Source: Eledone cirrhosa
Lineage: Eukaryota
NCBI GenBank assembly: GCA_964016885.1
Contig: CAXHJY010000502.1
Span: 32,266 to 96,265, forward strand
Direction: 5' to 3'
Length of the DNA: 64,000 nt
Shown here: piece by piece, positions 26,893-28,177 of the stretch
How positions within the stretch are numbered: the first letter of the stretch is position 1
Layout of the letters: each line of letters begins with the position of its first letter
Position numbers and translations under genes: made by a program
The notes under the pieces: model-generated
Seen by the model: only the letters and a program-made list of their open reading frames with translations
Databases searched by the model: none
Told to the model about the DNA's origin: nothing

Positions 26893-26961
<69 letters not shown>

Positions 26962-27076
26962 GTGTATTTTGCAATACACTTTATGCTTAATTAAAAGCAT
27001 TTTGAAGACCGTATGCTATTGTTTTAGAGTAGTGACAGACTCACTTACTTTAATTTCAGCAAACAGGAGGAGATAA

Positions 27077-27122
27077 AGCTGACAAGGCCCTGTTTCTGCA
27101 TTTATTGATGCTAATCAAAGCC
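27077..27122 (-). ncRNA. Type I HHR of U3-A8 type, probably damaged (core TTGATTA)
   Basis: Reverse complement: GGCT-TTGATTA-GCAT(CAATAA)ATGC-A-GAAA-CAGGGCCTTG-TC^AGCT. Confidence 0.65.
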
Positions 27123-27447
27123 AAGTACTCCCCCGTTTGCTGAAATTACGGATGTCATTTTCTTATAGAATTCTAGTAAATAATCAGGAACTGATTATAC
27201 AGAGCGTTTGCCGGTCAAGCAGAAATAAAAAAATTAGAATTGGTGCTCTGAAATAGTCATATATATATGAATGTATATATATAGTGTATTTTGCAATACA
27301 CTTTATGTATATGGCTATTTCAGAGCACCAATTCTAATTTTTAATTTCTGCTTGACCGGCAACCGCTCTGTATAATCAGTTCCTGATTATTTACTAGAAT
27401 TCTATAAGAAAATAACATCCGTAATTTCAGCAAACGGGGGAGTACTT

Positions 27448-27493
27448 GGCTTTGATAAGCATCAATAAATGCACAAACAAGGCCTTGTCAGCT
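27448..27493 (+). ncRNA. Type I HHR of U3-A8 type, probably damaged (G12>C)
   Basis: GGCT-TTGATAA-GCAT(CAATAA)ATGC-A-CAAA-CAAGGCCTTG-TC^AGCT. Palindromic stem III ACAAGGCCTTGT. Confidence 0.65.
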
Positions 27494-27582
27494 TTATCTC
27501 CCCCTGTTTGCTGAAATTAAAGTAAGTGAGTCTGTCACTACTCTAAAACAATAGAATACGGTCTTCGAAATGCTTTTAATTA

Positions 27583-28177
27583 AGCATAACAGACCAGATA
27601 TTATGATATGGGACAGGGAGAAGAAAACATGCACAGTAGTGGAAATTAGCTGCCCAGCAGATGCCAATATAATATCAAAGATTAGTGAAAAGGAGAATAT
27701 TTATGCAGAACTGATGAGAAATCTGCATATACTCCACCCTGATTACACCTTCAGATTTATGCCTGTGATTATTGGGGCACTGGGATATGTTAGTAACTGC
27801 CTCAATACAAATCTTGAGAAGCTAGGCTTCACAGGGACAGAAAGAACACAACTAGTTAGGAAATTACAAGTACAATCCGTTAATGGAACAGTAAAAATAT
27901 GTAAAACATTCCAAAAATGTTGCATCTAATAACTGCATATACACATGTACAGATACAAAGCATATACACATGCACACATACAACTCAAAACGTACACATC
28001 CACACATACAATAACATCCATATCCACACATGCATGCAGACATACATACATATCTACCTAGTTGATGTGTAAATTCCAATGAGAGAGTCTTGTGTCTATG
28101 TTAGAAACCGACTCTCTCTCTATTGGTAAAACTTTGTGAAATTATAAAACCAGAAGAACATACATACATACATACAT
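27583..28177 (+). mobile_element. 3' fragment of an R4/Dong-like RLE retrotransposon (PD-(D/E)xK endonuclease, 3' UTR, (CATA)n tail)
   Basis: ORF 27570-27929 has KHNRPDIMIWD...VVEISCP...PVIIGALG...KICKTF, matching the C-terminus of the 39252-42671 protein. Confidence 0.88.

Follow-up and report, generated by a model that had tools for sequence, protein, structure and literature searches.

The locus at 26955-27589 of the window (the whole stretch of 64,000 nucleotides that was analysed) very probably represents a decayed inverted pair of copies of a ~320-bp repeat family, designated family B, in which a hammerhead with a U3-A8 pair is fixed and which a Penelope-like element (PLE) probably copied as a non-autonomous retrozyme. 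Most hammerhead ribozymes have C-G where B has U-A, i.e., at the tertiary pair 3-8. Judged from its sequence, family B is a ~320-bp retrozyme-like repeat with a type I hammerhead motif and U3-A8 fixed at the family level, and it displays the sequence traits of the animal non-LTR retrozymes (non-coding, 150-450 bp, type I hammerhead, many dispersed copies).

The two inverted copies of the B unit at this locus share 96% identity over 287 bp, and their features are collected in Table 1. Every motif quoted in the first-pass annotation was found to be present, including the palindromic stem III (ACAAGGCCTTGT). The + copy reads TTGATAA, a 4-bp stem II, A-CAAA, and then the palindrome. The TTGATAA core, as claimed, occurs in this copy and forms the family majority, but a motif scan of the window revealed TTGATAA together with GAAA in neither copy, as each bears one private core defect (G12C in the + copy and A8U in the - copy), with which both would be inactive or weak. 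The hairpin agtgtatt..aatacact does have its stem, but the quoted spelling was an antisense reading with the loop reversed. The hammerhead consensus puts the predicted cleavage after C17. Folding of the hammerhead domain against shuffles gave a z of -7.0 (0/200), with z about -7 for both window copies. A search with Rfam at the gathering score returned 0 matches in the window; canonical family A (Table 1) was likewise missed, and hence the Rfam test is insensitive here. The right arm is truncated by the 3' fragment of a non-LTR retroelement (27590-27930, +), of which 67 aa match the terminal part of the retroelement ORF at 39237-42671 with 63% identity.

Table 1. Coordinates, in the window, of the family B locus and of the family A loci compared with it.
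Feature	Position	Strand	Remarks
Left arm	26955-27308	-	~1.1 family B units; 3' end lies at the 'short' end site and enters the (TA)n tract
Left-arm core		-	TTGATTA (A8U), extra A, then GAAA
Left-arm core box	27111-27118	-	U at position 8 is a private change
Right arm	27304-27589	+	One family B unit; cut off at 27589 by a retroelement fragment
Segment common to families A and B	27315-27385	+	Tail end site inside, 24 nt beyond the anchor 27315
Enclosing stem, 16 bp	27423-27438 with 27503-27518	+	Surrounds the hammerhead
Hammerhead box U3 U4 G5 A6 U7 A8 A9	27452-27458	+	TTGATAA; U3 = 27452, A8 = 27457
Stem II	27459-27472	+	4 bp, 6-nt loop; loop is CAANNA across all subfamilies
Core junction	27473-27476	+	Extra A (27473) follows C11.1 and precedes position 12, which is C here (private G12C)
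Stem III palindrome ACAAGGCCTTGT	27477-27488	+	
Predicted cleavage after C17	between 27489 and 27490	+	Placed by hammerhead consensus
(TA)n tract	26837-26961		Insertion target
Family A comparison locus	24-2261		Short inverted arm 24-188 (-) and 6.8 identical 310-bp units (+), C3-G8 hammerhead
Second family A locus	4119-4863		Inverted arms

The 3.0-Gb animal assembly was searched with exact patterns in which positions 3 and 8 were left free and the remaining core letters held fixed, so that only otherwise intact copies were counted, tandem copies being non-independent. On this count, the genome harbors 4,037 family B hammerheads, of which 3,969 (98%) carry U3-A8; the other cores were U3-G8 (23), U3-U8 (9), U3-C8 (5), C3-A8 (12), A3-A8 (9), and G3-A8 (10). 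C3-G8 and G3-C8 were each found 0 times among the 4,037, and reversed-pattern controls also gave 0. The 3,969 majority hammerheads possess the core boxes 3-9 and 12-15.1, U16.1-H17, and the Watson-Crick 3-8 pair of a type I hammerhead, and stems I-III around the core, open ends in stem I, and covariation are all present in the family. Among 45 distinct units found in tandem, 42 had a length of 318-323 bp. Head-to-tail organization was evident from 60 tandem units among the sampled loci L001-L090 and from arrays of 5-6 units on C1. Circular folding of four natural B units gave z values of -4.5 to -6.0 (25 shuffles each); fold energy failed to pick the strand, the opposite strand being equal or better (e.g., -87.9 vs. 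-79.2 for B0). Clusters of B copies lie ~2% away from their own majority. The insertions are short, as the 100 matches listed correspond to about 60 places, compared with 17 places for 100 listed matches of family A. The short insertions and the well-folding opposite strand weigh against the retrozyme reading. In one B3 array (L144, G000:C4:165394964-165398211), units of two types stand within a single tandem run, which may reflect a mixed template or template switching. In B3 sub-branches such as L209, L217, L230, and L246, stem III is one base shorter with an A-U to U-A swap, and the perfect even palindrome is lost.

Family A, which had been put forward as the sister of B, yielded 18,235 matches genome-wide, with C3-G8 in 100 of the first 100 listed. 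Its copies reach 100% identity across many contigs, suggesting that family A is younger or still active. The units of A arrays were identical or near-identical within a place (13/13, 11/12, and 9/9) and differed between places, which fits repeated copying round one circular RNA. Genome-wide, among the young A arrays (e.g., L158, L162, and L164), position 10.1 is either U (U-U mismatch) or A (A-U pair), and N7 is likewise U or A. The A and B units are colinear with 71-73% identity over ~300 aligned columns, and their global alignment score of 144 against -32 +/- 12 for shuffles upholds the sister relationship. One segment shows 84% identity over 81 bp from 27305. Comparison by part with shuffles showed strong alignment of the 5' and 3' parts (91 vs. 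-17 and 58 vs. -3, respectively), and the central ~100-nt hammerhead part scored no better than shuffles (-17 vs. -23 +/- 9). The 5' third (~100 nt) is conserved between A and B in sequence and differs in fold.

The long stem surrounding the hammerhead had been described as changing completely while still pairing. In the register of the core, 7 of its 16 pairs are identical, 8 have changed on both sides, 1 on one side, and 0 are broken; pairing is thus retained, but the change is not complete. Two-sided changes were also found at 2/8 and 1/6 pairs of the two 3' hairpins and at 3/4 pairs of stem II, the base of which is U-U in family A. The first-pass annotation further read the 3-8 pair as a natural compensatory swap. 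The U3-A8 state is indeed fixed in B, but as the hammerhead part aligns like shuffles, a stepwise swap from one family to the other is deduced rather than seen, and with C3-G8 missing from all 4,037 B hammerheads, B by itself gives no direction for the change. The same observations would be expected if a ready-made U3-A8 module from another element had been swapped in between shared flanks: the flanks align and the center does not, and no intermediate was found. Such an origin is somewhat unlikely, as the two hammerheads occupy the same register and follow the same plan, including the 16-bp stem with 6-7 same pairs and 0 broken, a 4-bp stem II, a 6-nt loop, and equal core spacing. It concerns only where the hammerhead came from and is compatible with family B being a Penelope-copied retrozyme.

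The ends of the insertions provide the link to Penelope. The A arms stop at two sites, which account for 14 and 13 of 30 ends, with one of each in 10/10 two-armed loci. For B, the 'short' end class was inflated by the near-palindromic anchor, and hence the tail class alone was used; 58 of 115 tail ends stop at position 24, the same site as in A, and 87 of 115 run into (TA)n. The inverted arms, one-sided tail, and (TA)n target expected of a Penelope-mobilised element are therefore all present. The Poseidon PLE of anole has two reverse transcriptase (RT) start sites and a 30-40 bp tail on one end (PMC11167929), and PLE insertions have been described as inverted and microsatellite-biased (PMC8557442); by analogy, the A and B ends match these start sites with their tail and these inverted insertions. 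The segment common to A and B is likely the part recognised by a Penelope-type RT, a role suggested by its conservation together with the fixed end sites.

Three PLE-like regions are present in the window, at 12205-14241 (-), 23324-24970 (+), and 34025-35188 (+). Their PLE label rests on motifs read by eye, the search of their ORFs against Pfam returning 0 families. As a candidate autonomous partner within the window, none of the three stood out, their flanks scoring like shuffles against the shared segment. PLE fragments were seen in some of the fetched loci, and none was tied to A or B. Minimal-hammerhead-like motifs flank the PLE-like regions near 14278 and 26649, without a link to families A or B. 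The window contains two further kinds of hammerhead motif: a third, canonical C3-G8 type I hammerhead at 14538 (+), whose 4-bp stem II is capped by a 6-nt loop and which belongs to a distinct element of ~450 bp with TA tracts on either side; and a fourth hammerhead-like motif in four copies at 56030, 59286, 61696, and 63593 (+), within a 2-3 kb repeat with TA tracts.

Selection on the RNA was evaluated within family B on 277 full copies (206 distinct), reduced to one per place, giving 140 places. The loci had been gathered in three ways: about 90 because they resembled one of three queries, 40 on account of their variant cores, and 60 by taking every match in the first 81 Mb of C1; the sample is thus partly chosen by similarity or for variant cores. 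Variants were counted from observed frequencies over 58 model pairs as shared (at least 8 places) or rare (1-2 places), leaving out 15.4-16.4 (ambiguous alignment) and 3-8 (sample chosen for variants there). Pairing was kept by 14/14 shared variants compared with 29/148 rare ones (p 1e-9; 140 places, 58 pairs), where the helices were drawn after the subfamily majorities had been seen and shared variants represent lineage events and not independent trials. Two-sided changes within B, which the first-pass annotation had proposed to look for as covariation among genomic copies, were found in 3/4 pairs of stem II, in the stem I pair 2.1-1.1, in one long-stem pair, and in the stem III palindromes. 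Stem II occurs as GCAT/ATGC, GCTT/AAGC, GTAC/GTAC, and GCAC/GTGC, and stem III is paired in each of its four main spellings. Loop II, with its 6 nt, and the internal loop within stem I look similar to the tertiary-contact loops of canonical animal hammerheads. The pattern speaks for selection on RNA of the hammerhead strand in source copies, which would be followed by random decay after insertion. The earlier proposal of selection on the whole RNA structure is borne out for pairing on the hammerhead strand, but it does not extend to the 5' ~100 nt, which fold differently in A and B.

The window copies belong to a branch with an extra A between C11.1 and G12, a feature that the first-pass annotation did not mention. 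This branch accounts for 227 of the 4,037 B matches, and G12 directly follows 11.1 in the other 3,810. A single origin of the extra-A copies was rejected (AU p 0.00016; 22 of 36 extra-A rows vs. 34 others). In a tree of 87 rows from 131 labelled, these copies sit between branches without the A (rooting on family A involves a long branch and is not relied on), and their history would involve either a gain followed by a loss or mosaic subfamilies. Of the 23 U3-G8 hammerheads, 11 belong to this branch, in 7 places (11/227 vs. 12/3,810 elsewhere), and three of the sampled U3-G8 places cluster together with support (99/94). The remaining non-A letters at position 8 number 4/227 in the extra-A branch and 10/3,810 in the others, a surplus that may reflect only the age of the branch. 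An extra A in the core junction may impair cleavage, and the spread of the branch would mean either that the ribozyme tolerates this geometry or that cleavage is dispensable. It is possible, and is proposed here only tentatively, that the hammerhead of the window branch works in spite of a core geometry not described before (U3-A8 plus the extra A at 11.1/12), tolerates even U3-G8, and spread while dividing into several sub-branches whose stems are compensated. If so, family B would be a natural series of core variants, each tested by retrotransposition in one genome. A published insertion at 11.1/12 was not found by narrow phrase searching, which does not establish its absence from print.

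The fold could be selected and catalysis not, the hammerhead being a passenger or a protein-binding shape and B moving via uncleaved transcripts. In vitro, uncleaved RNA of the anole PLE (hammerhead-dead mutants) was inserted equally well (PMC11167929), so cleavage may be unneeded for mobility, and the minimal hammerheads of PLEs cleave weakly in vitro (PMC4209133). The expansion of the extra-A branch to 227 matches, its high share of U3-G8 hammerheads, and the grouping of the three sampled U3-G8 places also agree with this. Such a reading is nonetheless improbable, as a passenger would not account for the nine other core positions, which show 0 shared variants in 140 places as against 41 in 172 unpaired columns, nor for the 3-8 pair, which is Watson-Crick in both A and B without being required by a plain secondary fold. 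Far less probable is that the compensated stems arose from DNA-level repair of imperfect palindromes by template switching, without selection on the RNA. The unit is hairpin-rich, both of its strands fold well, and stem III and the arms are palindromic, which speaks for such repair. However, repair would be strand-blind and would yield perfect pairs, while one-sided changes on the hammerhead strand occur as G-U and A-C in the ratio 8:0 among shared and 25:23 among rare variants, indicating selection on that strand; the 3-8 pair and the fixed core would also stay unexplained. That U3-A8 is a C3-G8 copy decayed by two transitions in a dead copy, as the private core changes of both window copies might suggest, is refuted by U3-A8 in 3,969 of the 4,037 hammerheads over all subfamilies and C3-G8 in 0.

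For family B as a retrozyme copied by a Penelope-like element, the following course may be envisaged. Source copies would be transcribed as multimers, in which the hammerhead would cut after C17, with two possible modes: a monomer using a 4-bp stem III, or a dimer formed by way of the palindrome. Next, the unit would close into a structured circle. A Penelope-type RT/GIY-YIG protein would nick (TA)n and start cDNA at two nearby sites, giving rise to back-to-back arms with a tail on one of them. Only the RNA of source copies would be under selection; a copy, once inserted, would decay at random.

Cervera and de la Pena (2020; PMC7229834) described metazoan non-LTR retrozymes as 150-450-bp non-coding tandem units of low GC content, with a type I hammerhead and a highly paired predicted monomer; in axolotl two sister retrozyme families (330 and 350 bp) exist, and in one of them stem II has a U-U at its base. 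Families A and B resemble these in unit type, in low GC content, in the hammerhead, in the highly paired predicted monomer, and in the presence of two sister families per genome, and the U-U at the stem II base is shared by family A. Unlike in the retrozymes described there, the core of B is U3-A8, its stem III is a palindrome of 12 nt, and its insertions are short inverted pairs with a PLE-type tail; expression as linear and circular RNA, a trait of non-LTR retrozymes, is for B a prediction. Retrozymes have been argued to derive from PLEs (bioRxiv 10.64898/2026.07.22.740005). The Poseidon PAc element is similar to A and B in its AT-rich targets, two RT start sites, and a hammerhead in the repeat (Frangieh et al., 2024; PMC11167929). 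In contrast to PLEs, A and B encode no protein, and an autonomous partner was not found in the window.

Families A and B together offer a natural test set for hammerhead evolution inside mobile RNAs, containing alternative 3-8 pairs, several subfamilies in which the stems are compensated, and a G-U signature of RNA selection confined to one strand. With the extra-A and U3-G8 branches it becomes possible to test whether Penelope-driven mobility depends on hammerhead cleavage, and the conserved segment with its fixed end sites points to an RT recognition element. The novelty of U3-A8 that the first-pass annotation implied does not hold. Perreault et al. (2011; PMC3088659) observed U3-A8 in a number of natural ribozymes and described it as previously proven active in vitro, with U10.1-U11.1 tolerated; among the insertions that their text names are A6a, U13a, and 2a/2b, none of these between 11.1 and 12, and the figures and supplements of that paper may list more. 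The Cercyon PLEs of Schistosoma mansoni carry U3-A8 minimal hammerheads, with about 1,300 matches, often as opposite-strand pairs (Cervera and de la Pena, 2014; PMC4209133). Cercyon and B are alike in showing 3-8 covariation at high copy number with a link to Penelope-like elements. As described there, the Cercyon motifs lie in pLTRs; their stem II is long, a real stem III is missing, and an additional base separates 9 from 10.1. In B, by contrast, stems II and III are both of 4 bp within a unit of retrozyme size, and the extra base of the window branch is on the other side, at 11.1/12. With U3-A8 published in 2011 and 2014, family B is a good new example and not a new kind of element.
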